From: Gemmobacter sp. | GTDB taxonomy: Bacteria > Pseudomonadota > Alphaproteobacteria > Rhodobacterales > Rhodobacteraceae | Direction: 5' to 3' | Assembly (NCBI RefSeq): GCF_016792925.1 | Contig: NZ_JAEULU010000278.1 | Coordinates: 1-60,389, forward strand | Length of the DNA: 60,389 nt | Shown: one piece after another, positions 4,233-48,774 of the stretch | Numbering within the stretch: the stretch's first letter is position 1 | Layout of the letters: the number at the start of each line of letters is the position of its first letter | Translations under genes and position numbers: made by a program | The notes under the pieces: generated by a model | Databases searched by the model: none | Told to the model about the DNA's origin: nothing | Seen by the model: the letters and a program-made list of their open reading frames with translations, nothing else

Positions 4233-4876
4233 GCCGCGCCCCCCGGCCCGAAGGCATCGGGCGCAAAGCCCGCGTCAAAACCCGCGCGCAGGCTTTCGGG
4301 TGTGACGGTCTCCAGCCTAGGCAGACGGCCCAGAGGCCGGGCGGCGCCCATGCGGCAGATCGTGCTTTCCACATGCGGCTCGGCCGCGCCGATGAAGGCC
4401 ACGCCATGCAGCGGCACCCCGGCCCGGCGCAGTGCCGCCAGCGACAGCAGGCTGTGGTTGATGGTGCCAAGCGCCGTGCGTGCGCAAAGGATCACCGGCA
4501 ATTGCCAGCGCGCGAACACCTCCAGAAAGGTCACCTGATCGGTCAGCGGCACCATCAGCCCGCCCGCCCCCTCGATCACCAAGGGGCGGGTGGCGGGCGG
4601 CGTCAGGGTGGTGTCGTCGATCTCCACCCCTTCGGCGGCGGCGGCGATATGGGGCGAGGCGGGCAGCCGCAGGCGATAGGCCTCGGGGTGGCAAAAGGCG
4701 CCGGTCAGACGCGCGACGGTCTGGCTGTCGGTCTCCTCCTCCAGCCCGGATTGCACGGGTTTCCAATAGGTTGCGCCAAGGCGCGCAGCCAGCCCGGCGG
4801 AAAACAGCGTCTTGCCGATGCCGGTATCGGTGCCGGTGACGATAAAGGCGGGGGGCGCGGTGAAGCTGGGGGTCAT
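4229..4876 (-). CDS. bioD: dethiobiotin synthase
   Basis: [29 protein letters not shown]. Confidence 0.96.
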
Positions 4877-5997: not shown

Positions 5998-6989
5998 GCC
6001 TCGGGCGAGGCGCCGTCGCAGCGCGGCACCTCGGGGCGCAGCCCAAGTTTCTGGAACAGCTGCATGTCGCGATCCTCGCCCGGATTGGCGGCGGTCAGCA
6101 GCGTATCGCCCATGAACAGCGAATTGGCCCCGGCAAAGAAGCACAGCGCCTGCATCTCGTCGCTCATCTCGGTGCGGCCCGCCGACAGGCGCATATGGCT
6201 GCGCGGCATCAGAATGCGGCCAAGCGCCACCACGCGCACGAAATCAATCGGGTCCACCGGGGCGGCCTTGGCCAGCGGGGTTTCAGCGATGGGGATCAGC
6301 ATGTTGATCGGCACGCTTTCGGGATGTTCCGGCAGCGTGGCCAGCGCCAGCAACATGTCGATCCGGTCGCCCGAGGTTTCGCCCATGCCCAGAATCCCGC
6401 CCGAGCAGACCTTGATCCCGGCCTCGCGCACCCGGGCGAGGGTGTCGATGCGGTCGGCAAAGGTCCGGGTGGTGATGACCTCGGGGTAGAAGGATTCGGA
6501 GGTGTCGATATTGTGGTTGTAGTAATCCAGCCCCGCGCCCTTCAGGCGCAGCACCTGATGTTCATCCAGCATGCCCAGCGTCATGCAGGTTTCCATGCCC
6601 AGCTCGCGCACGCCGCGCACCATGGCCTCGATGGCGGGCATGTCGCGGTCTTTCGGGCTGCGCCAGGCCGCGCCCATGCAATAGCGCGTGGCGCCGGCGG
6701 CCTTGGCCTTGCGCGCCTCGGACAGCACGCGCTCCACCTCCATCAGCTTGGAGGCAGAGAGCTGCGCCCCGTTGCGCGCCGATTGGCTGCAATAGCTGCA
6801 ATCCTCGGGGCAACCGCCGGTTTTCACCGACAAAAGGCGGCTCATTTGCACCTGATTGGGGTCGAAATGCGCGCGATGCACGGTTTGCGCCTGAAACAGC
6901 AAATCCATGAAAGGCAGATTATAGATATTTTCTGCCTCGGCGCGCGTCCAGTCGGTGCGAACATCGCTGGTGATCAGATCTTTTGGCAT
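5994..6989 (-). CDS. bioB: biotin synthase (radical SAM)
   Basis: [43 protein letters not shown]. Start taken at ATG 6989 (GTG 7004 is an alternative). Confidence 0.97.
6919..6928. promoter_or_regulatory. putative BioR box inside the bioB 5' coding region
   Basis: TTATAGATAT matches the BioR consensus TTATMKATAA at 9/10 positions, and is conspicuously AT-rich within a GC-rich CDS. Confidence 0.6.
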
Positions 6990-7074
6990 GATGCTTCGCC
7001 CCACATCCTATGATGGGGCAAGGAATTGACAAGCTATCTATCTTTTGTCCATCATTTTTCAGATGGCGCTCGCA

Positions 7075-13643: not shown

Positions 13644-13734
13644 GGCAGTCTCATCAGTGGCACCATCCTGGCGATGGCAGGACTGGAGGTGCCCCGATCC
13701 CCCGTAAGGATGCGACAGGGAATCGCCATCCCCG

Positions 13735-13751
13735 CATAAGGAAGGCATAAA
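13735..13751 (-). promoter_or_regulatory. putative KdpE-type direct-repeat binding site upstream of kup
   Basis: Minus strand TTTATG-CCTTC-CTTATG, 11-bp periodicity, resembling the E. coli KdpE site TTTATA-N5-TTTACA; about 90 nt upstream of kup. Confidence 0.45.
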
Positions 13752-13752
13752 G

Positions 13753-15318
13753 ATGATGGACAGCGCCGGGTCCGGCAGCGCAGGAAGGCCAGAAAGCGGC
13801 AGGAGACCAAAGCAGGGGGACGGCGCGGGAATGGCAGCGGAAGGGCACAAGACACGGCCATTGGCGCCGCCGGTCCTGTTGCGCGGGCCAACCCTGTCCG
13901 GGGGGCTGATCGCCGGGGTGCTGGTGGGGCTGGCGGCGCTGGTGGTCTGGTGGCTTCAGGCCCTGCTGCCCGACACCACGCCGCCGCTGATCTTTCTGAT
14001 CGCCGTGCTGGTCTCGGCCGCGCGCTCGGGCTTCTGGACCGGGCTGGCCACGGCGGCGGCGGCCTTTCTGGTGATGAATTTCCTGTTCACCGAGCCGGTC
14101 TTCACCCTGCATGTGGCGCAACCGCATGATATTGTGACACTGGCGGTCTTTCTGGCGGTGGCGGGGCTGGTCGGCTCGCTGGCGGGGCGGCTGCGCGACA
14201 GGGCCGAGGCGGCCCGCGCCCAGGCGGAAACGCTGGCCGTGCTGGCCGGGGCGGCGGCCCAACTGGCCGAGGCCGACAGCCGCGCCGATCTGCTGGCGCG
14301 GGCGGTGCGCGCCCTGGCCGATCTGGCGCAGGGTCAGGCCGTGCTGGTCGATCTGCCGCATCTGCCGCATGTGCTGGCGGCCCATCCGCCGCTGACCGAG
14401 CTTTCGGCTGCCGATGCCCAGGGCGCCGAGCGCTGCCTTCGCTCGGGGCGGGCGCAACCGGCAGCGGCCGAGGGCTGGCCCGGCGCGTCGCAGGATTATC
14501 TGATCGTGCCGCAAGGCGGGGCGGCGCTGGCCTTTGGCCATGCCCGGCTGATGGGCCACGACACCGCGCAACGCGCCATTGCGATAGCAACTCTGGCCGA
14601 GCAGGTGGCGCTGGCGCTGCGGCGGCTGGAGGCCAGCACGCAGGAGGCCCTGGCCCGGCAGGAGGCCGAACGCGAGGCCACGCGCGCGGCGCTGCTCACC
14701 TCGCTCAGCCATGATCTGCGCACGCCGCTTGCCACCATCCTGGGCGCCGCCACCACCCTGAACGAGCTGCATGACGGCTTGCCACCCGCCGCGCGGACCG
14801 ATCTGCTGGCCGCCATCGCCGAGGAGGCCGACCGGCTGAACAGCCATGTCACCAACCTGTTGCAGATGACCCGCCTGTCGCGCGAGATCGTCTTGCGGCG
14901 GGATTGGGTCGACCTGAACGATATTGCCAGCGCGGCGCTGACCCGGGCGCGCCGCGCCCATCCGGCAGTGCCCTGCCTGACCAACCTTGCCGATCTGCCG
15001 ATGGTGCGGGCCGAGGCCGGTTTGCTGGAACAGGCGGTGTTCAACCTGATCGAGAATGCGATGAAACATGGCTTGCCGCCCGTCCGCATGACCAGCCGCC
15101 AAAGCGGGCAGACTCTCACCCTCACCATCGGCGATGCCGGGCCCGGCCCTTCCGCGCAGGTGCGGGACTGGCTGAAGGCCGCCCCGATGTGGCCGATGCC
15201 CGAACAGCGCGGGCTGGGCCTTGCCGTCGCCAAGGGGATTGCGCGGGTGCATGACGGGCAGTTGCACTGGGCCGAGGGCGCCTTCTGCCTGTCGCTGCCT
15301 GCGGGGGAGCGGCCATGA
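13753..15318 (+). CDS. kdpD: KdpD-like sensor histidine kinase lacking the N-terminal KdpD/USP domains
   Basis: 4-TM DUF4118-type segment (NFLFTEPVFTL), GAF-like linker, H-box SLSHDLRTPL, N-box NLIENAMKH, DAGPG, GLGLA. The start may be ATG 13831. Confidence 0.8.
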   Translation: MMDSAGSGSAGRPESGRRPKQGDGAGMAAEGHKTRPLAPPVLLRGPTLSGGLIAGVLVGLAALVVWWLQALLPDTTPPLIFLIAVLVSAARSGFWTGLATAAAAFLVMNFLFTEPVFTLHVAQPHDIVTLAVFLAVAGLVGSLAGRLRDRAEAARAQAETLAVLAGAAAQLAEADSRADLLARAVRALADLAQGQAVLVDLPHLPHVLAAHPPLTELSAADAQGAERCLRSGRAQPAAAEGWPGASQDYLIVPQGGAALAFGHARLMGHDTAQRAIAIATLAEQVALALRRLEASTQEALARQEAEREATRAALLTSLSHDLRTPLATILGAATTLNELHDGLPPAARTDLLAAIAEEADRLNSHVTNLLQMTRLSREIVLRRDWVDLNDIASAALTRARRAHPAVPCLTNLADLPMVRAEAGLLEQAVFNLIENAMKHGLPPVRMTSRQSGQTLTLTIGDAGPGPSAQVRDWLKAAPMWPMPEQRGLGLAVAKGIARVHDGQLHWAEGAFCLSLPAGERP

Positions 15319-16016
15319 GCGGCGGCCCGCGCATCCTGATCGTGGATGACGAGGCGCAGATCCAGCGCTTTCTGGTGCATGCCCTGACCGCCACCGGCTA
15401 TGAAACCGAAACGGCAGGCAGCGCCGCCGAAGCCCGTGCCAGCCTTGCGCGCGGGCAGCCGGATCTGGTGATCCTCGACATCGGCCTGCCCGATGCCGAT
15501 GGCAAGACGGTGATCGAAGCCCTGCGCGCGCGCTCGGATGTGCCGATCATCGTGCTGTCGGCCCGCGATCAGGAGATGGAGAAAATTCTGGCGCTTGATC
15601 TGGGCGCCGATGATTTCGTGGCCAAGCCCTTTGCCATCGGCGAGCTGCTGGCGCGGATCCGGGTCTGCCTGCGCCCGCGCCGCGACGAGGCGCCGCTGAC
15701 CCGCATCGGCTTTGGCCCGCTGGAGATCGACCTGGCGGCCCATCGGGTGCGGCGCGGGGCCGAGGTGATCCACCTGACGCCCAAGGAATTCGAGCTGCTG
15801 CGCGCCTTTGCCGAGGCCCCCGGCCGCGTGCTGACCCATCGCCAGCTTCTGACCCGGATCTGGGGCCCCGCCCATGCCGAGGATGTGCCCTATCTGCGCG
15901 TCTTCATCGGGCAGCTTCGGCAAAAGATCGAGGCCGACCCGGGCCATCCCCGGCTGATCCAGACCGAGCCCGGCATCGGCTATCGTGGCATGGCGGCGCT
16001 CGACGGGCGCGCCTGA
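15315..16016 (+). CDS. kdpE: KdpE-like OmpR-family response regulator
   Basis: ILDIGLPD, ALDLGADD, HLTPKEF, RVLTHRQLL, YLRVFIGQLRQKIE, TEPGIGY; ATGA overlap with the kinase. Confidence 0.88.
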   Translation: MSGGPRILIVDDEAQIQRFLVHALTATGYETETAGSAAEARASLARGQPDLVILDIGLPDADGKTVIEALRARSDVPIIVLSARDQEMEKILALDLGADDFVAKPFAIGELLARIRVCLRPRRDEAPLTRIGFGPLEIDLAAHRVRRGAEVIHLTPKEFELLRAFAEAPGRVLTHRQLLTRIWGPAHAEDVPYLRVFIGQLRQKIEADPGHPRLIQTEPGIGYRGMAALDGRA

Positions 16017-16031: not shown

Positions 16032-16856
16032 TCAGCCCCCGAGGGCTGCAAGGAAGGCGTCGAATTCGGCATCCTTGATCGGCACGCTATGTTCCGCCGC
16101 CGGATAGCCGCCCTGATCCACATCGGCCTTGAAGGCGGCAAAGGCCGCGATCCGCGCCTCTTGCAGGGCCTTCATCTGCGGCGCCAGTTCGGCGTAAACC
16201 TTGCCATGGCGCGGCTTGTGGTTCAGGCCATAGCCGCAGACATCCTCGGTGAACAGATATTGCGCATCGGCATGTTTGCCCGCGCCCATGCCCAGCATGA
16301 CCACCGAGGAATTCTGCGACAGATAGGCCGCGACCCGGTCGGGCACCACCTCCAGCTCGGCGGCGAAAACCCCGATTTCCTCCAGCTTGCGGGCATGGCG
16401 CCACAGTTTTTGCGCCTCATCCGCCGTCTTGCCCACGGCGCGCCAGCCGGTCCAGCTGATATAGGAGGGGATCAGGCCGATATGGCCGACCACCGGGATA
16501 TGGTTGTCGCACAGCACCTTCTGGATGTCATAGGAGGCGGCGCAGTAATAGGCGTCTCCGCCCAGCGAGGCATAGTGAAAGGCCGCGCGCAGGTAATCCT
16601 CGGCGGTGGCAAGGGGGCGACCGTTGAAGCTGCCCCAGCCGCCATAGGGCAGGCCCACCTGCACAAAGCAATCGCCCGCCGCCTCGCGCATGGCGGCATC
16701 GAAAAAGCGCCCCTCGATGGAGAGCATATGAATGCCAGCCGCCGCTGCGGCTGCGGCCTCGTCATGGGTCTGGACATAAAGCATCGAGATTTTCTGCCCG
16801 CGCGCCTTCATGGCGCGGATGTCCTGGACGTGGGGTCGGTTGTGATACATGCTCAT
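16032..16856 (-). CDS. divergent PanB-family (hydroxymethyltransferase-fold) protein, probably not a pantothenate enzyme
   Basis: Keeps IPVVGHIGLIP, ELEVVP, GMGAG, DAQYL and YP..EHS. Lacks the LVGDS, ADLPF and VKIEG Mg/2-oxo-acid motifs. Start moved to ATG 16856. Confidence 0.8.
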   Translation of the reverse strand: MSMYHNRPHVQDIRAMKARGQKISMLYVQTHDEAAAAAAAGIHMLSIEGRFFDAAMREAAGDCFVQVGLPYGGWGSFNGRPLATAEDYLRAAFHYASLGGDAYYCAASYDIQKVLCDNHIPVVGHIGLIPSYISWTGWRAVGKTADEAQKLWRHARKLEEIGVFAAELEVVPDRVAAYLSQNSSVVMLGMGAGKHADAQYLFTEDVCGYGLNHKPRHGKVYAELAPQMKALQEARIAAFAAFKADVDQGGYPAAEHSVPIKDAEFDAFLAALGG

Positions 16857-16898
16857 GTGGGTCTCTTGAATGGGGGCCAAAGGGCGGGTGGCGCGAGG

Positions 16899-17204
16899 TT
16901 AAAGCTCGATCATCACGCGGCCCGCATCGACCTTGCAGGGATAGGTGCGCAGGTTGTTGCAGGCGGGGGGCGTCTCCACCTCGCCGGTTTCCAGATTGAA
17001 GATCGAGGAATGTTTCGGACATTCCACCGTGTTCTCGATCACCAGCCCGTCACAGAGATGCACATCCTCATGGGTGCAAAGCCCGTCAGTGGCGAAATAG
17101 CGGTCTTCGTGATTGCGATAGATGGCGAAGGTGCGGCCGTCATGGTCAAAGCGGCGCGCCTCTTCGGGGTCCAGCGTGGCGGGGCCGGTGTCGATCCAGG
17201 GCAT
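16899..17204 (-). CDS. mocE: Rieske [2Fe-2S] ferredoxin, MocE-like
   Basis: DGLCTHE and VECPKH Rieske ligands; 101 aa; context of inositol-type genes. Confidence 0.85.
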   Translation of the reverse strand: MPWIDTGPATLDPEEARRFDHDGRTFAIYRNHEDRYFATDGLCTHEDVHLCDGLVIENTVECPKHSSIFNLETGEVETPPACNNLRTYPCKVDAGRVMIEL

Positions 17205-17211
17205 GTGGTCC

Positions 17212-18171
17212 TCAGATGGCTTGGGGTTGGTAATCGGCGGGGGCTTGTGGCATCACGCCTTTCAGCAGCGCCACGGATTTTTCGAGGCCTTCGAGACCGT
17301 TCAGCAGCACGTCCTCATGCTCGATCGACAGCCAGCCGTCATAACCGGCCATCTTGAGCCGGTAGCAGAACTGCCGCCACCATTCCTCGCCATGGCCGAA
17401 ACCGAGGGTGATGTAAGACCAGGAGCGCGCCGGAATATCCATCAGGCTGCCGGTTTCCAGCAGACCCGTGGTGGCCTGTTTCGGGGCATTGAGGAAGGTA
17501 TCCTTGGCGTGAACGTGATAGAGCGCGGCGCCAAGCGCCTCGGCGGCGATCAGCGGGTCGGCACCCATCCAGAACAGGTGCGAGGGGTCGAGGTTCGCCC
17601 CCACCACCGGCCCCACCGCCGCGCGCAGTTTCAGAAGCGACGGCACGTTGTAGACGGCCTGATTGCCATGCAGCTCCAGCGCGATCTTCTCCACCCCGTT
17701 CTCGCGGGCCAGCGCCACGATCTCGGTCCAGAAGGGGATCAGCCTTTCCTCCCATTGATAACGCAGGATGGCCTGCGTCTCGGGTGGCCAGCTGGAGACG
17801 ACCCAGTTCGGCATCGTGTCCGTCGGGCTGCCCGCAGGCAGGCCCGACATTGTGCAGACGGTCTTGACCCCCATCAGCCCGGCCAGCCGGATCGTGTCGC
17901 GCAGGCCCTGACCCTGCGCCGGGTCGGTCGGGTGCAGCGGATTGCCATTGGCATTCAGCGCGATGATCTCCAGCCCGCGCGCGGCAAAGGCAGCGGCAAA
18001 GCGGGCGCGCGCCTCGGGCGAGGCCAGCAGGCCCTGTAGGTCGCAATGCGGCGCGGTGGACCAGCCGCAGGTATTGACCTCGACCCCCTGCACGCCCAGC
18101 CGGGCGGCATGATCCAGCAGGGTCAGGAAAGGCAGATTGCCCAGCGAGTCGGACACAAACCCAAGTTTCAT
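17212..18171 (-). CDS. xylose-isomerase-like TIM-barrel sugar isomerase/epimerase/dehydratase (AP endonuclease 2 family)
   Basis: Metal ligands in ALELHG, NLDPSH, HVHAKD and SIEHED. Start ATG 18171 overlaps the upstream stop. Confidence 0.85.
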   Translation of the reverse strand: MKLGFVSDSLGNLPFLTLLDHAARLGVQGVEVNTCGWSTAPHCDLQGLLASPEARARFAAAFAARGLEIIALNANGNPLHPTDPAQGQGLRDTIRLAGLMGVKTVCTMSGLPAGSPTDTMPNWVVSSWPPETQAILRYQWEERLIPFWTEIVALARENGVEKIALELHGNQAVYNVPSLLKLRAAVGPVVGANLDPSHLFWMGADPLIAAEALGAALYHVHAKDTFLNAPKQATTGLLETGSLMDIPARSWSYITLGFGHGEEWWRQFCYRLKMAGYDGWLSIEHEDVLLNGLEGLEKSVALLKGVMPQAPADYQPQAI

Positions 18172-19172
18172 GCGTAAAGCTCCGGTTTGGCGATCATCTG
18201 AACTGGCTGGCGCTGGCCGGTGGCCAAGGCCTTTGCGCCCGCCTCGGCCACGATGGCCGCCGCATAGCCATCCCAAGCCGAGGAGGCCTGGGCCGGAAAG
18301 ACGCCCGTGGTCACAAAGCACAGGAAGGCACGGTTCTGGCGGATATAGGCCTCGCGGTAGCGGCCCCGCCAATCGGCCTCATAGGCCGCATGGCTGCCAA
18401 GGGCGGCATCGCTGCGGGTATAGGCCACATGGGTCATGGCGATGGAGCCCGCCTCGCCCACCAGTTCGGCGCGCACGTCATAGCCATAGGCGGCGTTGTT
18501 GTTGATCTCGATATTCACCAGCTGGTGCTGATCGGTTTCCACCACCATCATCACCGGCGCCACACGCGCATCGCTGCGCCGGGGCTGGAAGGCCGAAATG
18601 GCGGTATAGTCACAGCCCAGCACATGCCGGACCACATCAAACTCATGCGGCGCCGAATTGGTGATCGCCATGGCGCCGGTGAAATCAGCCGCCGGAGTTT
18701 CCACATTGCGGTGAAAATTATGCATCATCAGCGCGCGGCCCAGCCGGCCCTGATCCAGCGCCGCCTTCATCTCGACATAGGCCTGATCGAAGCGGCGCAT
18801 GAAGCCCAGCATGACATGGCGCCCGGCGGCGGCCTCGGCCCGCATCACCGCCAGACATTCGGCGGGCGATTGTGACAGCGGCTTTTCGCACATCACCTTC
18901 TTGCCCGCCGCGATACAGGCCATCGACAGCGGCGCATGGGTGACATCGGGCGAGGCCACGATGACCGCATCAATATCGGCGCGCGCGATCACCGCCTCGG
19001 GGTCCGAGGCGACCTCGGCCCCATAAGGCGCCGCGACCGTGGCGGCGCGGGTGGTGTCGCGGTCGCAAATGGCGGCCAGGGTCGCCCCCGGCAGGTCTTC
19101 GGCCACGATCCTGGCATGGTCGGCCCCCATGAGGCCCGCACCAATCACGGCAACGCGGATGGTCATGTTCAT
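18168..19172 (-). CDS. Gfo/Idh/MocA-family NAD(P) dehydrogenase (inositol-dehydrogenase-like)
   Basis: VIGAGLMG, CEKP, GFMRRFD, NSAPHEFD, YGYDVR. Start at ATG 19172 or 19166. Confidence 0.88.
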   Translation of the reverse strand: MNMTIRVAVIGAGLMGADHARIVAEDLPGATLAAICDRDTTRAATVAAPYGAEVASDPEAVIARADIDAVIVASPDVTHAPLSMACIAAGKKVMCEKPLSQSPAECLAVMRAEAAAGRHVMLGFMRRFDQAYVEMKAALDQGRLGRALMMHNFHRNVETPAADFTGAMAITNSAPHEFDVVRHVLGCDYTAISAFQPRRSDARVAPVMMVVETDQHQLVNIEINNNAAYGYDVRAELVGEAGSIAMTHVAYTRSDAALGSHAAYEADWRGRYREAYIRQNRAFLCFVTTGVFPAQASSAWDGYAAAIVAEAGAKALATGQRQPVQMIAKPELYA

Positions 19173-19317
19173 GTCTTTCCTGTGAGAGGCGCCCTGGCCG
19201 GAGCAAAACCGGCCAGGGCCTTGGCACCTTGCGCAACAGGGAGAGCCGCAAGGATTGGGGAGGAGATTGGAGTGTGCCTCCCCGGGGGTGGGTCGGCCCG
19301 CCGGAGCGGGCCAGAGA

Positions 19318-20103
19318 TCATTGCGCCTGCGCTTCGATCTCGGCCTCCAGATTGGCCATGCTGGCGCCACCGGCCATCAGATCGGTGATCTCTTCGCGGG
19401 TCTTTTCGCCCTTGCCGAAATCCGCCGCCACGGCGCCCCGGATCAGCACGGCGAAGTGATCGCCCACGGCCATGGCATGCATGACCTGATGGGTGATGAA
19501 CACCACCGCCAGCCCGCGCCGCTTGGCCTCGTTCACGATGCGCAGCACATGGGTCGCCTGTTTCACGCCAAGCGCCGCCGTCGGCTCGTCCAGGATCAGC
19601 ACGCGGGCGCCGAAATGGACGGCGCGGGCAATCGCAAGGCTTTGCCGCTCGCCGCCCGACAGACCGCCCACCAGCCGGTCGCCATCGTCGATCCGGGTGA
19701 TGCCGAAATCCTGCACCGCTTTCACCGCGATCTCGTTTGCGGTCTTGCGGTCATAGCGCTTGAACGGGCCCCAGCCTTTGGTGGGCTCGACCCCCACAAA
19801 GAACGACCGGCCGATCGACATCAGCGGGAAGGTGCCGCCGAACTGGTGAACCGTCGCGATCCCCTGTTCCGAGGCCGCGCGCGGGCTGGGAAAGCTGACC
19901 GCCGCACCATCCATCAGGATCTGCCCCGAGGAGGGCTGATGCACCCCCGACAGCAGGCGGATCAGCGTCGATTTGCCGGCGCCATTATCGCCCAGCAGGC
20001 ACAGAACCTCGCCCGCCTTGATCTTCAGATTGATGTCGAACAGCACGTCGATGGGGCCAAAGCTCTTGTTGACACCCTTCAGTTCCAGAATTGGCGCGGT
20101 CAT
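19318..20103 (-). CDS. sugar (CUT2) ABC transporter ATPase, single NBD
   Basis: GDNGAGKS, LSGGERQ, LDEPTAALG. Confidence 0.93.
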   Translation of the reverse strand: MTAPILELKGVNKSFGPIDVLFDINLKIKAGEVLCLLGDNGAGKSTLIRLLSGVHQPSSGQILMDGAAVSFPSPRAASEQGIATVHQFGGTFPLMSIGRSFFVGVEPTKGWGPFKRYDRKTANEIAVKAVQDFGITRIDDGDRLVGGLSGGERQSLAIARAVHFGARVLILDEPTAALGVKQATHVLRIVNEAKRRGLAVVFITHQVMHAMAVGDHFAVLIRGAVAADFGKGEKTREEITDLMAGGASMANLEAEIEAQAQ

Positions 20104-21098
20104 GCCTTGGCCCTCTTTTTCTTGCTGGCGGCGCCAAGCGCCATCTTGCGGAAGGTTTCATTCATCGCCACGGCCCCCAGCAGGGTGATGCCGATGATCA
20201 GGTTGGCCCAGTTGCGTTCGATCTGGGTGAAGTAGATGCCCTGCGAGACGATGGCGAAGGTGATGGTGCCCAGCACGATCCCCAGAACCGAGCCATAACC
20301 GCCGGTCAGCAACACGCCGCCCACCACGATGGCGCAGATGGCGTTGAAGATGTAGCCCATCCCGCCCGACACCTGCGCCGAGTTGAACTGGATCGCACCG
20401 CAGACCCCCACGAAAGCCGCCGCCGTAGCCGAAAGCATGAACAGCGCAATCTTCAGCCGCACCGTGGGGATACCGGCATTGCGGGCCGAGGTCTGGTCGC
20501 CACCCATAGCCAGGATCCAGTTGCCCACCGGCGAGACATGCAGCAGCCAGAAGAACGCCGCCGCGAACCCGGCCCACCACAGGATGATGATCTGGTATTT
20601 GCCCGCCATCATCTGCCCAAGCGCCGCTTTTGCCCAGTCTGGCGGGGCAAGCGATACGCTCGCATTGCCGGTCAGGAACATCGCGGCAGACAGGATGAGG
20701 CCCTGCACCACCATCAGCGTGCCCAGCGTGATGATCAGCGTGGGCACCGAGGTGCGCGTGGCAATCAGCCCGTTGACGAGGCCGACAATCAGCCCGAGCG
20801 CCAAGGCGCCCGCAATCCCCACCGTGATCGGCAGGCCGAAATGCCCCGACAGGATTGCCACCGTCATCGACCCCGCCGGGATCATCGCGCCGATCGAGAT
20901 GTCGATCTCTCCGGCAATCATCAGCAGCCCCACGGGCAGTGCCACGATGCCCAGATTGGCCGCCAGGTTCACCCAGCTTGCGGCGCCCGCCAGCTGCCCA
21001 AGGTTCACACCGCCGCATAGCACATAAAAGGCAATCACCGCGATCAGGCTGAGGACCGAGCCGAATTCCGGCCTGCGGGTCAGGTTTGAAAGGTTCAT
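20100..21098 (-). CDS. sugar (CUT2) ABC permease
   Basis: GEIDISIG, P.LIITLG, GNWILAMGGD..SARNAG, GG..LTGGYG. Start moved to ATG 21098. Confidence 0.92.
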   Translation of the reverse strand: MNLSNLTRRPEFGSVLSLIAVIAFYVLCGGVNLGQLAGAASWVNLAANLGIVALPVGLLMIAGEIDISIGAMIPAGSMTVAILSGHFGLPITVGIAGALALGLIVGLVNGLIATRTSVPTLIITLGTLMVVQGLILSAAMFLTGNASVSLAPPDWAKAALGQMMAGKYQIIILWWAGFAAAFFWLLHVSPVGNWILAMGGDQTSARNAGIPTVRLKIALFMLSATAAAFVGVCGAIQFNSAQVSGGMGYIFNAICAIVVGGVLLTGGYGSVLGIVLGTITFAIVSQGIYFTQIERNWANLIIGITLLGAVAMNETFRKMALGAASKKKRAKA

Positions 21099-21105
21099 CG
21101 CGCCC

Positions 21106-22107
21106 TCACCTCTTGCGACCGGCCGCCAGCGCAAGCGCCATGGCCCGGAATTTGTCATTGGTCATCACCGCGATCAGCAGCAGGGCGCCGATGATGATGC
21201 TGCCGTAATTGGGATCGAGGCCCGAGAAGAAGATGCCCTGATTGACGATGCAGAAGGTCAGCGTGCCGATCACGATGCCCGCCACCGATCCAGCGCCGCC
21301 GGTCAGCAATACGCCGCCGATCACCACGCACATGATGGAGTTGAAGATGAAGGTCTGCCCCGCCGCGACCTGCGCCGCGTTGAAGGTCATCACCTGAAGC
21401 ACGCCCACGAAAGCCGCCGTAAAGCCCGAGAACATGTAAAGCCCGATGGTCAGCCACACGGTCGGAATGCCCGCATTGCGCGCACTGTCCTTGTCGCCGC
21501 CCAGGGCGAAGATCCAGTTGCCCAGCGGCGAGGCATGCAGCAGCCACCAGGTTGCGCCGACAAACAGCCCCCACCACAGGATCGAGACCTGAAACATATT
21601 GCCGACCAATTGGCCGAACACGGCCTTGGTGGCATCCTCCGGCACCAGAAACACCCCGGTGGAGCCATGGATCAGCACCGTCACGCCCAGCGTGAGGCCC
21701 ATGGTGCCAAACATCGTGCCGATGGTGATGATCAGCGACGGAATGCGCGTGCGGCTGACCAGCACGCCATTCACAAAGCCGATGGCAAGGCCGACGCCAA
21801 GCCCGCCCAGAATGGCCAGCACATCCGGCACCCCGAAATCCACCGCCAGCAGCGATACGGTCAGCGACGAGGCCGGAACGGTCGAGCCGACCGACAGGTC
21901 AAGCTGCCCCGCGATCATCAGCAGGCCGATGGCCAGCGCGATGATGCCGACCTCGGAGGTCATGTTGAGAAAGCTCGACAGCCCCGGCGCGCCGATGAAA
22001 TTGGCGCCCCCCATCGCAGCAAAGAAGACATAGACCGCAAGCAGGCCCATGAAAGACCCGGCCTCGGGTCTGCGGGCCAGCTGGCCCGCGGTTGTTCGAT
22101 TTGTCAT
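21106..22107 (-). CDS. sugar (CUT2) ABC permease
   Basis: GQLDLSVG, PSLIITIG, GNWIFALGGD..SARNAG; paralog of the neighbouring permease. Confidence 0.92.
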   Translation of the reverse strand: MTNRTTAGQLARRPEAGSFMGLLAVYVFFAAMGGANFIGAPGLSSFLNMTSEVGIIALAIGLLMIAGQLDLSVGSTVPASSLTVSLLAVDFGVPDVLAILGGLGVGLAIGFVNGVLVSRTRIPSLIITIGTMFGTMGLTLGVTVLIHGSTGVFLVPEDATKAVFGQLVGNMFQVSILWWGLFVGATWWLLHASPLGNWIFALGGDKDSARNAGIPTVWLTIGLYMFSGFTAAFVGVLQVMTFNAAQVAAGQTFIFNSIMCVVIGGVLLTGGAGSVAGIVIGTLTFCIVNQGIFFSGLDPNYGSIIIGALLLIAVMTNDKFRAMALALAAGRKR

Positions 22108-22172
22108 GCACACCCTCCGCGATGGCAGGCAAAGTCGGGCCGTCCGCCTGGCAGACGACCCGGATCAAAGGC

Positions 22173-23144
22173 TTAGCGGGTGCCTTGTTCTGCGCCAGCA
22201 AGGGTGGCCTTGATATTGACCGCATCCACGATGCCCGGCCCGGTCAGAATTTCGCGCGTCGGGATCGTCAGGCCGTAATTCACATAGCCGTTCAGGATCG
22301 ACACGGCATAGAAGCCCTGCTGATAGCCCTGCTGGTCAATGGCGCAGGCCTGGGTGCCCTTGTCGATCTGATCCAGGATGGCCGCGTCGAAGTTCACGCC
22401 ACACAGCTTGACCTTGCCTTCCATGCCCGCCTGCGCAATGCCCTGCACCGCGCCCACCGCATCCAGATTGGCGGTGGTGAAGACCGAGTCGATCTCGGGG
22501 TGTTCCAGCAGATAGGCCTTGATCGCCTGCGCCACCGCCGTCACGTTGCCCTGTGCCGTTGCGGGCAGGGGCAGCACGTCAACCTTGCCGCCCGCCGCGG
22601 TGATGCCATCGCCAAAGCCGCGGCAATAATCCTCGATATTGGCCGCGCCGGGCAGCGAGTTGATGCAGACGCCGGACTTGCCGCCCGCCTTGCCCAGATA
22701 TTCGCCCCCCGCCACGCCGGCCTTGTAATCCACCGCGCCGACATAGTTCATCGCGCCCAGACGGTCGGCGGCCTCGATCCCGCCGGCATTATAGATCACC
22801 AGCGGAATGCCCGCATCGACCACGGCCTTGAAGGCGGGGTCCATCGCTTCCGGCACCCAGTTCGGGCCGACAATGCCGGTGGCACCCTGGTCGATGGCCT
22901 GCCGGATCAGCTCGGCGGCATCCACGCCCAGATTGTCATAATTCTGCGGGCCAAGCCAAGTGACCGAGCCCCCTTGGGCCTCAGCCAGTTTGCCCGCGTC
23001 TTCGGCGCCGCGTTTCACGATGCCCCAGAAGGGATCGTCGGGCTTGCCACCGATCACGAAGATCTTGGCGCCCTCGGCATAGGCCATGCCCGCGCCCAGG
23101 GCGCAGATGGCTGTTGCCGCCAGAAGTTTGGTCAGTTTCATCAT
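22173..23144 (-). CDS. sugar/cyclitol ABC substrate-binding protein
   Basis: Signal peptide, DPFWGIVKRGA, AIDQQGYQQG, LTGP; same motif pattern as the inositol-type SBP at 27707. Confidence 0.9.
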   Translation of the reverse strand: MMKLTKLLAATAICALGAGMAYAEGAKIFVIGGKPDDPFWGIVKRGAEDAGKLAEAQGGSVTWLGPQNYDNLGVDAAELIRQAIDQGATGIVGPNWVPEAMDPAFKAVVDAGIPLVIYNAGGIEAADRLGAMNYVGAVDYKAGVAGGEYLGKAGGKSGVCINSLPGAANIEDYCRGFGDGITAAGGKVDVLPLPATAQGNVTAVAQAIKAYLLEHPEIDSVFTTANLDAVGAVQGIAQAGMEGKVKLCGVNFDAAILDQIDKGTQACAIDQQGYQQGFYAVSILNGYVNYGLTIPTREILTGPGIVDAVNIKATLAGAEQGTR

Positions 23145-23237
23145 GAGTCTCCTCCCTCACAAGGCCGTTTATCGGCACTTTTCTGTGTCAGGCCGCCACA
23201 GGGCTGCCCGGCATTCCTCCGCCGCCTTCACCCCCGG

Positions 23238-24248
23238 TCATTCGGCCGGGGTCTTGGCCGCCATGCGGTCTTTCTTGCGGCGGAACCGTTCCTTCATCTG
23301 TTCATCGGCGGCCTTGGTGCCGTCGTGCCAGGTGCCGAACCACTTATCGAGCGGGATCAACCCGTCGCCGCCGTAGTTCACCTCGAAGTATTTGTGGTGC
23401 AGGTAATGGGTATAGGCGTGGCTATCGACCGCCTGCCCCTCGGTCACTTCCAGCTTGTCAAAGCCGATATGACCCACGATGGCGCCATAGGCCGTGGAGG
23501 TCAGCTGAAACAGGGCCGCAATCGGCGCCGACGGGATCAGCAGGTGCCACAGCATCTCGGCAAAGAAGGCAAAGGCCTCGACCGGGTGCATCGACATGGA
23601 GGACCAGGGCGACGGGTTGATCGAATTGTGGTGGATCGAATGGATCCACTTATACAGTGGCGGCTGATGGATCGCCCAATGGATGCAGAAGAAATGCACC
23701 TCATGCAGCGCAGGCGCCAGCAGGATCAGCGCGGCAATCCAATAGGGATGCTCGGCCGGATCGACCCAGTTGCCGATGCCATTGGCAAAACACCAGAGCG
23801 TGAAACACTCCACCGCCGTCCAGAGCGGGATCGAGATGAAGAAGGTGCGCAGGAAATTGTCGATATTCTGGCTTTTGAACCAGAACACGTCAGACGGATT
23901 TTCCGACGGGAACTTGGCATTATACTTGAACCGAGTCCCCTGCTTGCGGCGCACATAATAGAAAAACTCGACCGAGCCATAGAGCAGGAACACCCCGCCC
24001 GCATTGACCGCGTGGATTCTCAGCACCCATTCCCAGCCGAAGGTCTTCATCACCTCGACCGGGGGCAGCACGAAATACATATAGGCCAGCGTGATGGCCA
24101 TGAAGATCGCATTATGCGGCCAGAGATAGGCAATCAGCCACCGCCCGAGCGCCGACCATTTGCCAAGCCAGAAGGGCGCGATCTCCAGAGGCTTTGCGGG
24201 TGCCCAGTTGCCGCGCTTGTCCCGCGTGCCGAATTGCAGGTCGTCCAT
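23238..24248 (-). CDS. sterol desaturase / fatty-acid hydroxylase superfamily membrane di-iron oxygenase
   Basis: His boxes HWAIH, HSIHH and HYLHH, plus MHPVE, NYG and DKWFGT; several TM helices. First gene of the operon, GGAGGGG RBS. Confidence 0.9.
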   Translation of the reverse strand: MDDLQFGTRDKRGNWAPAKPLEIAPFWLGKWSALGRWLIAYLWPHNAIFMAITLAYMYFVLPPVEVMKTFGWEWVLRIHAVNAGGVFLLYGSVEFFYYVRRKQGTRFKYNAKFPSENPSDVFWFKSQNIDNFLRTFFISIPLWTAVECFTLWCFANGIGNWVDPAEHPYWIAALILLAPALHEVHFFCIHWAIHQPPLYKWIHSIHHNSINPSPWSSMSMHPVEAFAFFAEMLWHLLIPSAPIAALFQLTSTAYGAIVGHIGFDKLEVTEGQAVDSHAYTHYLHHKYFEVNYGGDGLIPLDKWFGTWHDGTKAADEQMKERFRRKKDRMAAKTPAE

Positions 24249-24289: not shown

Positions 24290-24305
24290 TGGAATATTCA
24301 TACCA
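24290..24305 (-). promoter_or_regulatory. IolR-like operator upstream of the oxygenase operon
   Basis: Minus strand TGGTATGAATATTCCA, 15/16 identical to the site before iolG; 41 nt before ATG 24248. Confidence 0.7.
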
Positions 24306-24408: not shown

Positions 24409-25419
24409 ATGGCGCATCGCAGCACGATTCAAGACCTGGCAGAGGCCGCAGGTGTCTCGGTCTCGACCATCGACCGCATCCTGAACGGGCGCGCCAAGGT
24501 GCGCGGCGCGACGGCGGAAAAGGTGCTGGCCAGCGCCGAGGCGCTTGGCTTTTATGCCCTGCCCGCCCTGCGCGAGCGGCTGGGGCAAAAGCCCACGCTG
24601 CGGCTGGGTTTTCTGCTTCAGCAATCGCAGCGCAGCTTTTACCGCCTGATCGCCGAGGCCCTGCGCAAGGCCACCCCGCCCGAGGTGGAGGTGGTGATCG
24701 AGTTCATGGAGGATCTGAGCCCCGAAGCCGTCGCTGACCATGCGCTGCGCCTCGGGCGGCAGGTGCGTGCGCTGGCGCTGGTGTCAGCCGAACATGCCCG
24801 GGTCTCGCATGCGCTGGAGACCCTGGCCGCCGAGGGCGTGCCCGCCTATGCCCTGATCTCGGAGCTGACGGCGGGCTGCGGCGTGGGCTATATCGGGCTG
24901 GACAACTGGAAGGCCGGGCGCACGGCGGGCTGGGCGATCACCGGCCTGACCCGCAAACCCGGCAAGGTGGCCATCCTGGTGGGCAATCACCGCTATCGCT
25001 GTCAGGAATGGAACGAGATCGGCTTTCGCTCCTACTGCCGCGAACATGCGCCGGATTTCACCTTGCTGGAGCCGCTGCAAACCTTTGAAAGCGCCGCCAT
25101 CGCGCGGGATGTGGCGCATCAGCTTCTGGCCCGGGAACCCGAGCTGAGCGGGCTTTACGTCTCGGGCGGGGGGATGCCGGGCGTGCTGGAGGCCCTGCGC
25201 GAAACCGGGCGCGGCAAGGGGTTGATCACCGTGGGCAATGATCTGACGGAACACACAAGGCTTGGGCTGATTGACGGGGTGATGTCGCTGGTGGTGGCGC
25301 ATCCGCTGGCCCGCCTTGCCACCGAGGCCTTCGCGCAGATGCTGGGCGATCTGCACAGCGGCACATCGCCCGGCAAGCGCCTGATCAGCTTTGACATCTA
25401 CACGCCCGAAAGCATCTGA
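24409..25419 (+). CDS. LacI-family transcriptional regulator
   Basis: TIQDLAEAAGVSVSTIDRILN HTH plus a periplasmic-binding-protein-like domain; divergent from the oxygenase operon. Confidence 0.93.
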   Translation: MAHRSTIQDLAEAAGVSVSTIDRILNGRAKVRGATAEKVLASAEALGFYALPALRERLGQKPTLRLGFLLQQSQRSFYRLIAEALRKATPPEVEVVIEFMEDLSPEAVADHALRLGRQVRALALVSAEHARVSHALETLAAEGVPAYALISELTAGCGVGYIGLDNWKAGRTAGWAITGLTRKPGKVAILVGNHRYRCQEWNEIGFRSYCREHAPDFTLLEPLQTFESAAIARDVAHQLLAREPELSGLYVSGGGMPGVLEALRETGRGKGLITVGNDLTEHTRLGLIDGVMSLVVAHPLARLATEAFAQMLGDLHSGTSPGKRLISFDIYTPESI

Positions 25420-25434: not shown

Positions 25435-26448
25435 CTATGCCGAGCCCCGCTCCATGAACCGCCCGGTCAGGAACACATCAGCCGAGGTGCTGCCACCATC
25501 ATTCAGCACGCGCACCAGTGCGCGGGCCATCTCGGTCACCGGCTGGCGATAGGTCGTCAGATCATAGGCGGGCGAGGCCGCCAGCGGCACATCGTCAAAG
25601 CCCGTCACCGCCACATCGGCGGGCACTGACAGGCCCAGACGGTGCCGCAGCGCGTCAATCGCGCCCAAAGCCAACACGTCATTCTCGCACACGATCACAT
25701 CGGGGCGGCCTTCTGCGGGCAGGGCCGACAGATGCGCAACCACCGCCTCGCAGCCAAGCGGCATGCTGTAATCCGGCACATGGATGACCACGGGCCGCGC
25801 GCCCCGCGCCTCCTCCTCCCAGACCTTGAGGAAGGTGTCCTTGCGCATCAGCCGCGTGGATTCGGTGTTCGGCCCGGCCAGAAAAAGCGGGCGACGGAAG
25901 CCCTTGGCCATCAGATAGCGTGCGATCTCGGTCATGGCGGCCACGTCATCGCAGGCGATGGAAATGGTGCCGGGCGCCGTGCCGGCCCGCGCAAAGACGA
26001 TCAGCTGCTTCACCCGCCGCGCCCCGAGCGCGGTGCGACGAATGCCATCGTCGAACTGGGTGCCGATCACCACCGCTGCATCCACCCGGCGCTGGCTGGC
26101 GGTCAGCAGCGCTTCCGGCGCGTCCTTCTCACCCAGCATATTGACCAGCAGCGTGCCATAGCCCGCAGCCCGCAGGATGCGCGTCAACCGCTCCAGCATC
26201 ACCAGCTTGTGCGGATTGTCGAAATCATCGACCAGCAGTGCCACAAGGTTCGAGCGGTCCGACGCCAGCGAGGCTGCCAGCAGATCCGGCACATAGCCCA
26301 GCTCTGCCGCTGCGGCCATCACCTTGGTGCGGGCCTTTTCCGAGATCACGCCATCTTTCTTGAAAGCGCGCGCCACCGTCCAGCGCGACACCCCGGCGCG
26401 GGCGGCCACGTCATCGGCGGTCACGGTTTCCACTGCCTGCTCGGTCAT
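25435..26448 (-). CDS. LacI-family transcriptional regulator
   Basis: VTADDVAARAGVSRWTVARAF HTH, ENDVLALG, VTGFDD, LTTYRQP; divergent from iolG. Confidence 0.93.
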   Translation of the reverse strand: MTEQAVETVTADDVAARAGVSRWTVARAFKKDGVISEKARTKVMAAAAELGYVPDLLAASLASDRSNLVALLVDDFDNPHKLVMLERLTRILRAAGYGTLLVNMLGEKDAPEALLTASQRRVDAAVVIGTQFDDGIRRTALGARRVKQLIVFARAGTAPGTISIACDDVAAMTEIARYLMAKGFRRPLFLAGPNTESTRLMRKDTFLKVWEEEARGARPVVIHVPDYSMPLGCEAVVAHLSALPAEGRPDVIVCENDVLALGAIDALRHRLGLSVPADVAVTGFDDVPLAASPAYDLTTYRQPVTEMARALVRVLNDGGSTSADVFLTGRFMERGSA

Positions 26449-26569: not shown

Positions 26570-26585
26570 TGGAATGAATATTCCA
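26570..26585 (+). promoter_or_regulatory. IolR-like operator (GGAA-N6-TTCC) upstream of iolG
   Basis: TGGAAT-GAAT-ATTCCA palindrome 40 nt before ATG 26626; fits the GGAA-N6-TTCC motif of alphaproteobacterial IolR. Confidence 0.75.
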
Positions 26586-26625: not shown

Positions 26626-27624
26626 ATGTTGAAGGTTGGCCTGCTGGGTGCGGGGCGGATTGCTGGCGTGCATGCCACGGCGATTTCGGGCAATCCGGGA
26701 TCAGCACTTGTCGCGGTCTCGGATATCAATGCCGAAGCGGCGGCAGCCCTTGCGGCGCAATGTGGCGCCGAGGCCCGCAGCACGGATGCTATCCTGAATG
26801 ATGCGGCGATTGATGCCGTGCTGATCGCCACCTCCACCGACACGCATTCCGACCTGATCGAACGCGCGACGGCGGCGGGCAAGGCGGTGCTGTGCGAAAA
26901 GCCGGTCGATCTCAGCCTGGCGCGCGCGCTGGCCTGCCAGACGGCCGCCACGGGCAAGCCGGTGATGATCGGGTTCAACCGCCGCTTCGATCCGAATTTT
27001 GCCGCGCTGAAGGCCGCGGCCGACCGGGGCGAGATCGGCAAGGCCGAGCTGCTGTCGATCACCTCCTTTGATCCGGCGCCGCCGCCAGTGGCCTATATCA
27101 AGGTCTCGGGCGGGCTGTTCCGCGACATGATGATCCATGATTTCGACATGGCGAATTTCATCATGGGGGCGGCCCCGGTGACGGTTTCGGCCGTGGGCAC
27201 GAGCATCGTCGATCCGGCGATCGGCGCGGCGGGCGATGTGGATACGGCGGTGGTCACCCTGACCTATGCCGATGGCCGGATCGCCGTCATCAAGAACAGC
27301 CGCCGCGCGGTCTATGGCTATGACCAGCGGGTCGAGCTGTTGGGCTCGGAGGGCCTGTTGCAGGCGCAGAACATGCTGGAAAACACCGTGGTGAAATCGA
27401 CCACTTCGGGGGTGACGGGGGCCAAGCCCACCTATTTCTTCCTCGAACGCTACATGCCCGCCTATGCGGCGGAATGGGCGGCCTTTGTGGCGGCGGTGAA
27501 TGGCGGCAGCGCGCTTCCGGTCACGCTGGCCGATGGCGTCGCCGCGCTCGCCATGGCCGAGGCGGCCACCAGATCCGCGCAAACCGGCGCCCCTGTCGCG
27601 CTGGCTGACATTCTCGGGGGGTAA
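26626..27624 (+). CDS. iolG: myo-inositol 2-dehydrogenase (IdhA/IolG)
   Basis: LGAGRI, CEKPVDL, GFNRRFDP, SGGLFRDMMIHDFDMA, YGYDQRVE, FFLERY. Confidence 0.93.
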   Translation: MLKVGLLGAGRIAGVHATAISGNPGSALVAVSDINAEAAAALAAQCGAEARSTDAILNDAAIDAVLIATSTDTHSDLIERATAAGKAVLCEKPVDLSLARALACQTAATGKPVMIGFNRRFDPNFAALKAAADRGEIGKAELLSITSFDPAPPPVAYIKVSGGLFRDMMIHDFDMANFIMGAAPVTVSAVGTSIVDPAIGAAGDVDTAVVTLTYADGRIAVIKNSRRAVYGYDQRVELLGSEGLLQAQNMLENTVVKSTTSGVTGAKPTYFFLERYMPAYAAEWAAFVAAVNGGSALPVTLADGVAALAMAEAATRSAQTGAPVALADILGG

Positions 27625-30700: not shown

Positions 30701-31474
30701 ATGACTTTCCCGCTTGCGGCCTGCGCCGAAATGCTGTGGCGCGACAAACCGATCGACTGGCGCGCCGCGCGCCTGAAGGAGATGGGCTTTGGCGTCGGCC
30801 TGTGGAACTGGCCCGCCCATGACCTTGCCGCGCTGGAGCGCACGGGCGCCAGCTTCACCATCATGAATGGCTATCTGGAGGGCCGTCTGGCCGATGCCGA
30901 GGGCGCCGAGCGGCTGCTGGCTTCCGCGCGCGAGACGGCTGCGGTGGGCAAGCGTCTGGGTGTGCAGCGGCTGAACCTGCATGGCACCGGCCTCGGCGAT
31001 CAGGGCATCCCGATCCCGCGCATCGGCTCGCATGCCCCCGGCGCCGAGCAGCGCGCCCGCGACACGCTGCACCGCATCTGCGATCTGGCCGAGGAGATGG
31101 GCGTGGTCTTCACGCTGGAGAACCTGAACCCGATTGATCACCCCGGCTGCCCCTTCGGCTCCACCGCTGCCGTGCTGTCGCTGGTCTCGGCGGTCAACCG
31201 CCCGCAACTGCGCATCAATCTGGACCTCTACCACACCCAGATCGGCGAGGGCGACCTGATCCGCTGGTGCGAGGCCTGCCTGCCCTGGATCGGCGAGGTG
31301 CAGGTGGCCGACAATCCGGGCCGCTGCGAGCCGGGCAGCGGCGAGATCAATTACCGTGCCATCGCGCTGGCGCTGAAGGCCATGGGCTATGCCGGTCCGG
31401 TGGGGATGGAGGCCTTTGCCCAAGGCACGGCAGAAGCCGCGCTGGAGGCCTTCCGCGCAGCCTTCACCGTCTAG
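30701..31474 (+). CDS. hydroxypyruvate-isomerase-like TIM-barrel protein (possible inosose isomerase)
   Basis: LENLN..DHPG, DLYHTQI.EG, VQVADNPGR.EPGSGEINY, GY.G.VGME. Confidence 0.85.
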   Translation: MTFPLAACAEMLWRDKPIDWRAARLKEMGFGVGLWNWPAHDLAALERTGASFTIMNGYLEGRLADAEGAERLLASARETAAVGKRLGVQRLNLHGTGLGDQGIPIPRIGSHAPGAEQRARDTLHRICDLAEEMGVVFTLENLNPIDHPGCPFGSTAAVLSLVSAVNRPQLRINLDLYHTQIGEGDLIRWCEACLPWIGEVQVADNPGRCEPGSGEINYRAIALALKAMGYAGPVGMEAFAQGTAEAALEAFRAAFTV

Positions 31475-44492: not shown

Positions 44493-44529
44493 AGCGCTCT
44501 CCGCAGGCGGGCAATCGGGGGGACGGGCA

Positions 44530-46302: not shown

Positions 46303-46458
46303 CGCCGTGCCTCAATGTCCAAAGCGGCCATCCCGAAGCGGCGTGCCGACACAGGTCGCCGTGTCGCATGATCGCCGGGGGCAATCAAGCGGCCCTGCGG
46401 CAAACAGGCCGGTTCTGGTCAAGACCCCCCGGATATTTTAAGGATCAAGCGGCCCGAT

Positions 46459-48771: not shown

Positions 48772-48774
48772 ACC

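Follow-up and report, generated by a model that had tools for sequence, protein, structure and literature searches.

An inositol-linked Gemmobacter operon joins a membrane di-iron oxygenase to a PanB-like protein and likely demethylates a methyl-cyclitol

How might a bacterium remove the methyl group from a methylated inositol, and where does the released carbon go? This question is raised by an operon in a 60,389 nt stretch of DNA from Gemmobacter sp. (contig NZ_JAEULU010000278.1, assembly GCF_016792925.1; hereafter the window). Between positions 16032 and 24248, the minus strand carries nine open reading frames (ORFs), each separated from the next by a short gap or overlapping it at the stop and start codons. 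They encode a membrane di-iron oxygenase, a solute-binding protein (SBP) with its ABC transporter, a dehydrogenase, a TIM barrel, a Rieske ferredoxin and a PanB-fold protein that we call PanB* (Table 1). An earlier note on this DNA had described nine co-oriented genes, and we recovered all of them as minus-strand ORFs with Pfam or NCBIfam family matches. It preferred a C-methyl inositol as substrate, cleaved by a PanB-type retro-aldol reaction, and named an O-methyl inositol with capture of the one-carbon (C1) unit as the alternative. We find wide conservation of the operon and a link to inositol genes, which make oxidative demethylation of a methyl-cyclitol its likely function. By a narrow balance, we think it probable that the substrate is an O-methylated inositol and that PanB* loads the formaldehyde-level carbon onto tetrahydrofolate (THF).

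The conservation of the operon was assessed in a genome scan anchored on PanB*, in which the best 80 of 108 relatives were used for all counts out of 80. They belong to Rhodobacterales of marine and freshwater origin and to Rhizobium, Shinella, Ensifer, Mesorhizobium and Labrys. Near PanB* we observed the ferredoxin in 71 of the 80 loci, the PF04116 oxygenase in 62, the TIM-barrel gene hyi in 54, the dehydrogenase in 53 and the operon's own TIM barrel in 52, together with a second dehydrogenase (36), iolG (34), a reductase (26) and an oxygenase of the MocD type (11). The inositol genes iolC, iolD and iolB were found in 14, 9 and 6 loci, and any of iolG, iolC, iolD or iolB in 41. When 9 kb of upstream sequence was available, 61 of 62 PanB* loci carried an oxygenase of one family or the other, and the two families co-occur in 11/80. 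The linkage of oxygenase and PanB* to inositol genes, on which the earlier note had staked its proposal, is thus present. In other genomes, orthologues of the window's iolG and hyi are part of the operon, and the two operons of the window therefore likely form one pathway; since relatives usually place hyi between the ferredoxin and PanB*, the window's hyi is likely part of it too.

A second scan, anchored on the oxygenase, used the best 80 of 250 metagenome relatives. PanB* was present in 16 of the 21 of these loci that have 6 kb of downstream sequence, and three of the five loci without it are long operons probably cut by the flank. A sample of 401 genomes from the class contained 23 with PanB*, 25 with the oxygenase family and 11 with both, compared to 1.4 expected for independent genes in a sample whose related genomes are not independent; the remaining 14 of the 25 oxygenase genomes had no PanB* match. 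Within the host's family, PanB* occurs in 78 of 301 genomes. We also inspected a distant sample from this family, made up of 60 regions around 79 PanB* matches weaker than 1e-100. A same-strand di-iron oxygenase lies within 4.5 kb in 50 of these regions (39 of the MocD type, 13 of the window family).

The oxygenase-ferredoxin-PanB* module is also tied to the folate C1 genes purU (16 of the 80 loci) and folD (8), all at most 3.7 kb downstream of PanB*. Both genes are found directly behind PanB* in several gene orders, in Rhizobiaceae as well as Rhodobacterales, and also in operons where a PF04116-type enzyme is the sole oxygenase in view (e.g. L051, L052 and L065).

The plainest clue to the chemistry comes from the rhizopine locus. 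A plasmid search with PanB* gave 250 records, mostly from Rhizobium (138) and Sinorhizobium (87). On pRLa11 of R. leguminosarum, the gene order is iolE-like, Gfo/Idh, SBP, MocR, mocD (desaturase), mocE (ferredoxin), mocF (reductase), PanB* and purU (mocDEF-PanB*-purU at L087:7249-11743). The MocR of this plasmid scores 751 bits against a cut-off of 650, genes for an aminotransferase and a GMC protein, as expected for rhizopine synthesis, are close by, and its PanB* is 47% identical to that of the window. The mocDEF-PanB* arrangement is found in R. etli and on S. meliloti pSymB as well. MocDEF demethylates 3-O-methyl-scyllo-inosamine, according to the accessible text of PMC13434037, which cites Bahar 1998, and the organization of the moc genes is covered in the available parts of PMC10107442, PMC3538637 and PMC6668481. 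Neither PanB* nor purU is named as a member of the rhizopine locus in the accessible text of the literature examined. As the copy in this O-methyl rhizopine locus has the same invariant residues as the other PanB* proteins, PanB* seems to do its job independently of a C-branched skeleton. In the minimal clusters L004 and L012, the mocDEF-PanB* architecture is kept and only the oxygenase is exchanged.

The host genome itself carries three oxygenase-ferredoxin-PanB* clusters, in the window and on contigs C335 and C117, none of them with a reductase. The C335 cluster (L081:2532-5978) consists of lacI, mocD, mocE and PanB*, with an IolR-type box and a MocD that is 71% identical to rhizopine MocD. 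The C117 cluster (L082:1408-6045) comprises PanB*, lacI, a 53% paralogue of the window oxygenase, a MocB-like SBP and a ferredoxin. No ferredoxin reductase was found in the operon or elsewhere in the window, and the best stand-alone candidate in the genome is on C277, at 36% identity. Like MocDEF, the window operon combines a membrane di-iron oxygenase with a MocE-family Rieske ferredoxin in an inositol-pathway context, with PanB* behind, and it shares a divergent LacI regulator with the non-rhizopine copies of MocDEF. Unlike MocDEF, it has an oxygenase of PF04116 rather than PF00487, no reductase in the window and no MocA/B/C/R aminocyclitol genes, and it brings its own ABC system, dehydrogenase and TIM barrels. 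Because the oxygenase is not a member of MocD, we regard the system as a MocDEF-like variant. In R. mesoamericanum, homologues of mocDEF are induced by a pinitol-rich exudate, as the accessible text of PMC5789663 reports; this supports an O-methyl role of MocD, not of the window oxygenase.

We next consider the oxygenase. Its only Pfam match is PF04116 (E 1e-17, 64.9 bits, cut-off 31), and eight histidines in three boxes (H190, H194, H203, H206, H207, H281, H284 and H285) are invariant across 30 sequences. The predicted structure is helical (predicted local distance difference test score, pLDDT, 85.9), and its best fold match, Scs7p, is weak (Z 5.4, root-mean-square deviation (rmsd) 5.5, 184 aligned). 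A sequence search of the PDB gave no match at E <=1, and the ESM Atlas match is labeled only "sterol desaturase family". Compared with rhizopine MocD, the oxygenase gave no significant BLAST hit and an hhalign profile probability of about 1.3% (E 0.042); the resemblance is limited to the His box. The C-4 methylsterol oxidase ERG25 oxidizes C-methyl groups, and the sterol-desaturase superfamily had accordingly been read as a pointer to C-methyl oxidation. This pointer turned out to be neutral, because the same fatty-acid-hydroxylase motif family includes the ether-cleaving AGMO, which places a hydroxyl on the carbon beside the ether oxygen and so gives an unstable hemiacetal (PMC3617469, in its accessible text). 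By family description, the eight-His di-iron motif is common to AGMO, ERG25 and the window oxygenase; unlike the latter, AGMO and ERG25 act on lipids with other electron donors, and for neither of them is activity on a soluble cyclitol with a Rieske ferredoxin known. The window operon defines a second oxygenase family, non-homologous to MocD, which likely serves the same purpose. Groupings in the oxygenase trees carry no weight here, since the loci were picked mostly by way of PanB* and the "cyclitol" group received its name only once the first tree was known.

Some related operons contain two oxygenases, either paralogues or a PF04116-type and a MocD-type enzyme, often together with two SBPs (L003, L015, L040, L070, L077 and L079; L002, L010, L016 and L032). 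Such operons may serve more than one methylated isomer, or a substrate that carries two methyl groups.

PanB* had been labeled a degenerate PanB, and this description holds: the protein has the PanB fold, remains below the PanB cut-offs and has lost the PanB motifs. It scores 91 bits against the NCBIfam profile TIGR00222 (cut-off 207.55) and 116 against another PanB profile (cut-off 272), and a canonical panB that passes both cut-offs is located on contig C274. The PanB* model (pLDDT 85.8) matches KPHMT 1o68 at Z 25.9 and rmsd 2.8 over 212 aligned residues, with the next family at Z 15. We aligned 186 PanB* sequences with the canonical PanB of the genome and used E. coli residue numbers. The columns of D45 and S46 (the GDS segment) are deleted in 186/186. 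D84 is replaced throughout (Gly in 152, Ala in 21, Ser in 11, Cys and Thr once each), as is K112 (Tyr in 165, Met in 10, Phe in 6, Ile in 3, His and Leu once each), and E114 is mostly Ala or Ser (the top six residues account for 177 of 186). We take D45, S46, D84 and K112 to be the Mg2+ and keto-acid residues of PanB. Equivalents of H136 and E181 are retained in 186/186, and PanB* has invariant residues of its own at H125, E167, E169, D205 and H217, of which E167, D205 and H217 are new. According to the available text of PMC4814558 and PMC13488298, PanB belongs to the class II aldolases and requires a metal. For R. etli RHE_PE00443, the accessible part of Villasenor et al. (PMC3082293) describes no visible metal-binding domain and no complementation of panB. 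We infer that this protein is the single PanB* match on R. etli p42e, which lies behind mocD-mocE-mocF-like genes.

With the GDS, D84 and K112 equivalents absent from every sequence, and PanB* following mocDEF in an O-methyl rhizopine locus, the preference for a C-methyl inositol and a PanB-type retro-aldol step could not be upheld. We favor the alternative named in the note, an O-methyl inositol whose C1 unit is captured. Across both substrate readings, we consider it fairly probable that PanB* is a THF-linked formaldehyde-activating enzyme. PanB* shares its fold and the H136/E181 equivalents with PanB/KPHMT (EC 2.1.2.11; PDB 1m3u, 1o68 and 3vav), and differs from it in the deleted GDS segment, the replaced D84 and K112 and the scores under curated cut-offs. 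In function only, the reaction proposed for PanB*, in which formaldehyde condenses with a C1 carrier of the pterin type, would resemble that of Fae; unlike Fae, which uses tetrahydromethanopterin, PanB* would use THF as carrier and a PanB barrel as scaffold.

A tree of 40 hand-picked PanB* rows, rooted at the midpoint only, places the window-type clade (100/100) on a long stem (0.33) inside a 28-row clade with 19 MocD-partnered rows, and monophyly of the MocD-partnered rows is rejected (p-AU 1e-47). PanB* is a large, mis-annotated sister family of PanB and the likely C1-handling partner. The simplest common denominator of its sequence contexts would be formaldehyde-level carbon and folate, not a C-branched ketone.

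Distant PanB* copies occur in further settings. Those of L310, L311, L312, L148 and L134 lie with genes for Rieske oxygenase alpha subunits, class II aldolase, creatinase-like proteins, LysR or betaine-type SBPs and may be N-demethylation modules. Together with PhyH genes beside some distant copies, the Rieske, creatinase-like and betaine-SBP neighbors suggest other heteroatom demethylations. Pairs of MocD-like and PanB* genes are kept in small (1.4-1.6 Mb), low-GC alphaproteobacterial genomes (L132, L133, L135, L136 and L138; G030, G339 and G209), and G209 has four PanB* copies, two of them in tandem beside PhyH dioxygenases. On a Phaeobacter inhibens plasmid (L090:9308-11790), PanB* makes up a unit of three genes with a sterol-desaturase-family oxygenase and a protein annotated as "inositol oxygenase family" that has no Pfam match at 1e-8.

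The SBP offers a further view of the ligand. Its top PDB match is 4ru1 (E 7.7e-28), which we take to be a myo-inositol-bound structure. It scores 169 bits against the rhizopine-binding MocB profile NF052284 (cut-off 420) and is 23.5% identical to the pRLa11 SBP. Compared to the myo-inositol-type SBP of the neighboring iolG operon, it carries the changes H32G, F69Y, P96W, R173Y and D251N. The gain of Y69 and W96 and the loss of H32 mark the whole family; R173 and D251 are replaced in the window subtype (35 sequences), whereas the sister subtype (96 sequences) retains them in 96 and 95, respectively. As far as residue roles can be read from sequence, these pocket changes fit a bulkier, less hydroxylated ligand, with either kind of methyl group.

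Based on these observations, we propose the following route. The ABC system would take up an O-methyl inositol, with quebrachitol, sequoyitol, bornesitol and O-methyl-muco- or O-methyl-scyllo-inositol as candidates. O2-dependent hydroxylation, by chemistry modeled on MocDEF and AGMO, would convert O-CH3 to O-CH2OH, with electrons supplied by the ferredoxin and a reductase encoded elsewhere. The hemiacetal would then give free inositol, and PanB* would join THF to formaldehyde, or to the hydroxymethyl group while it is still bound, yielding 5,10-methylene-THF, which FolD and PurU, whose genes are linked to PanB*, would carry to formate. The dehydrogenase, IolG and the two TIM barrels may turn the resulting stereoisomer, in a presumed order, into scyllo-inosose for the downstream route, whose iolEDBC genes sit on contig C125 of the same genome. 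We set aside an ERG25-style oxidation to CO2, since purU, folD and PanB* indicate that the carbon leaves at the formaldehyde level.

Several points weigh against this proposal. The purU/folD linkage is a minority trait: 10 of the 16 loci among the 80 are from kindred rhizobia, only 1 of 29 class-wide PanB* regions shows it, and neither gene occurs in the 60 distant host-family regions with flanks of about 5 kb. Class-wide, 18 of the 29 PanB* regions have no oxygenase in view (11 do), although that of L122 lies a little beyond the retrieved region. For THF binding, only the fold and the neighbors of PanB* speak, and another kind of metal site could arise from its invariant acidic and His residues. 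The genome also encodes a glutathione-dependent formaldehyde dehydrogenase, in pieces across contig ends, so capture by THF would not be obligatory. Since the genome keeps a true MocD cluster on C335, the window oxygenase probably acts on another substrate, maybe of another kind. Finally, the literature searched contains no substrate, growth or enzyme work on this operon.

These points lend themselves to other explanations. We consider it unlikely that the C-methyl group of mytilitol or laminitol is hydroxylated, the adjacent hydroxyl oxidized and the carbon released by retro-aldol cleavage, through PanB* or a TIM barrel, to THF or as formaldehyde. Algae make both compounds, and many carriers of the operon are marine or freshwater Rhodobacterales, but Rhizobium, Shinella, Ensifer and Mesorhizobium often carry it too. 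An oxygenase that differs from MocD and coexists with it, in this genome and in the 11 loci with both families, may indicate a different substrate class; against this, L004 and L012 copy the mocDEF-PanB* layout with the oxygenase alone swapped. The SBP subtype without the Arg and Asp that its sister keeps would suit either methyl kind. The long stem of the window-type PanB* clade also speaks for this route, and the new invariants might form another metal site, or a TIM barrel could perform the retro-aldol step; yet the motifs for enolate chemistry are missing in all 186 sequences, and the invariants are the same in the O-methyl rhizopine-locus copy.

Also improbable, in our estimate, is that O-demethylation takes place while PanB* merely speeds hemiacetal breakdown, binds a ligand or is structural, with formaldehyde passing to the glutathione pathway or condensing spontaneously. 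The lack of purU and folD at most loci, the formaldehyde dehydrogenase and the orphan PanB* copies that are common class-wide would agree with this, but the two folate genes stand directly behind PanB* in varied gene orders of two lineages, methylene-THF is the ancestral substrate of PanB, and spontaneous condensation is too slow in vivo (PMC7073904, accessible text). Quite unlikely, finally, is an oxygenase that hydroxylates a non-methyl position, such as the ring CH2 of the deoxy-inositol quercitol, or an O-methyl sugar, with PanB* as a passenger or serving a co-located MocD. Oxygenase clusters without PanB* do exist, in Sinorhizobium sp. B11, in the 5 of 21 metagenome loci and in the 14 of 25 genomes of the class sample, and a ligand that lacks a hydroxyl could likewise explain the loss of Arg and Asp in the SBP. 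On the other side, PanB*, purU and folD occur in operons with a PF04116-type oxygenase as the only one in view, and the IolR-type box and the iol genes indicate cyclitols. O-demethylation with folate loading is thus the reading we keep.

The control region connects the operon to its neighbor. The 16-mer TGGWATGAATATTCCA has exactly two copies in the window, compared to a mean of 0.02 matches in shuffled sequences, none of which reached two in 100 shuffles. An operator common to the operon and the neighboring iolG operon, as proposed before, is therefore borne out. We take the box GGAA-N6-TTCC to be an IolR site. Similar boxes flank an RpiR-family gene before iolCDEB on C125 and occur on C109 and before mocD on C335. 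Conservation of the box among relatives is partial: one with at most one mismatch was found in 20 of 131 upstream regions (shuffles: mean 5.8, maximum 11) and an exact box in 1/131. A homologue of the divergent LacI, at 40% identity or more, is present in 59 of the 80 oxygenase-anchored metagenome loci, and this LacI is the more constant regulator of the relatives. A second LacI regulator lies between both operons (25435-26448) and is rare in related loci. A promoter scan gave 4 sites versus 3.0 by chance.

Table 1 Features of the operon and its surroundings in the window.
Feature	Position	Strand	Evidence
Membrane di-iron oxygenase, sterol desaturase/fatty acid hydroxylase family; predicted methyl hydroxylase	23238..24248	-	PF04116
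Inositol-type ABC SBP, altered pocket	22173..23144	-	Sugar SBP family; PDB 4ru1 best match
ABC permease 1	21106..22107	-	PF02653 (BPD_transp_2); start from ribosome-binding site
ABC permease 2	20100..21098	-	PF02653 (BPD_transp_2); start from ribosome-binding site
ABC ATPase	19318..20103	-	PF00005
Gfo/Idh/MocA dehydrogenase	18168..19172	-	Family match; nearest named structure inositol 2-/D-chiro-inositol dehydrogenase
Xylose-isomerase-like TIM barrel; predicted inosose isomerase/epimerase	17212..18171	-	PF01261 (AP_endonuc_2)
MocE-family Rieske ferredoxin	16899..17204	-	TIGR02377
PanB*, PanB-fold protein without metal/keto-acid motifs; predicted C1-to-tetrahydrofolate loader	16032..16856	-	Below PanB cut-offs
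IolR-type operator upstream of oxygenase	24290..24305	-	One mismatch to GGAA-N6-TTCC
Divergent LacI-family regulator travelling with the operon	24409..25419	+	Family match and relatives
Second operator copy upstream of iolG	26570..26585	+	Exact GGAA-N6-TTCC box
Inositol 2-dehydrogenase IolG, neighboring operon	26626..27624	+	TIGR04380 413 bits vs cut-off 355
Hyi/ketose-epimerase-like TIM barrel (hyi)	30701..31474	+	Family match and gene order of relatives

Ribosome-binding sites revise several starts: the likely ones are 16856 for PanB*, 21098 for permease 2 and 19172 or 19166 for the dehydrogenase. The ferredoxin just passes its family profile (137.6 bits, cut-off 136.15). The top NCBIfam match of the dehydrogenase is the IolG profile NF052679, at 248 bits and under the cut-off of 540, and its PDB match is 3mz0 (E 1.6e-53). 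For the operon's own TIM barrel, 2zds is the sole PDB match; the isomerase label given earlier agrees with the AP_endonuc_2 family and stands at family level only. In 11 of the 80 related loci, a protein of about 105 amino acids, RpiR-like by eye and with no Pfam or NCBIfam match, follows iolG or PanB* and often precedes the reductase (e.g. L056:11936-12253). Elsewhere in the window, the translations indicate biotin synthesis genes (2967-7004), a Kup transporter with a KdpDE-like pair (11727-16016) and a polysaccharide synthesis and export cluster (43188-59139).

No description of the operon or of a PanB* function was found in the literature searched, outside of which most subscription papers lie. 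Judged by title or abstract start, the literature found holds nothing on bacterial catabolism of mytilitol or laminitol; that found on quebrachitol, sequoyitol and bornesitol holds nothing on bacterial genes, and on PanB-like paralogues PMC3082293 alone was relevant. Methylated inositols are abundant plant and algal osmolytes, and among the components measured in Mimosa root exudate pinitol reached the highest concentration, according to the accessible text of PMC5789663. What is known of the demethylation of methylated inositols by bacteria goes back to a genetic model of MocDEF from 1998. The C-methyl reading, if true, would provide a mytilitol/laminitol route by C-C demethylation, as a counterpart of MocDEF. 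According to the accessible text of He et al. 2020 (PMC7073904), formaldehyde and THF condense too slowly on their own to sustain growth, and an uncharacterized enzyme is left open, which makes PanB* a directly testable candidate. In conclusion, PanB* is a candidate enzyme for the condensation of formaldehyde with THF and, if so, would be useful for synthetic methylotrophy.

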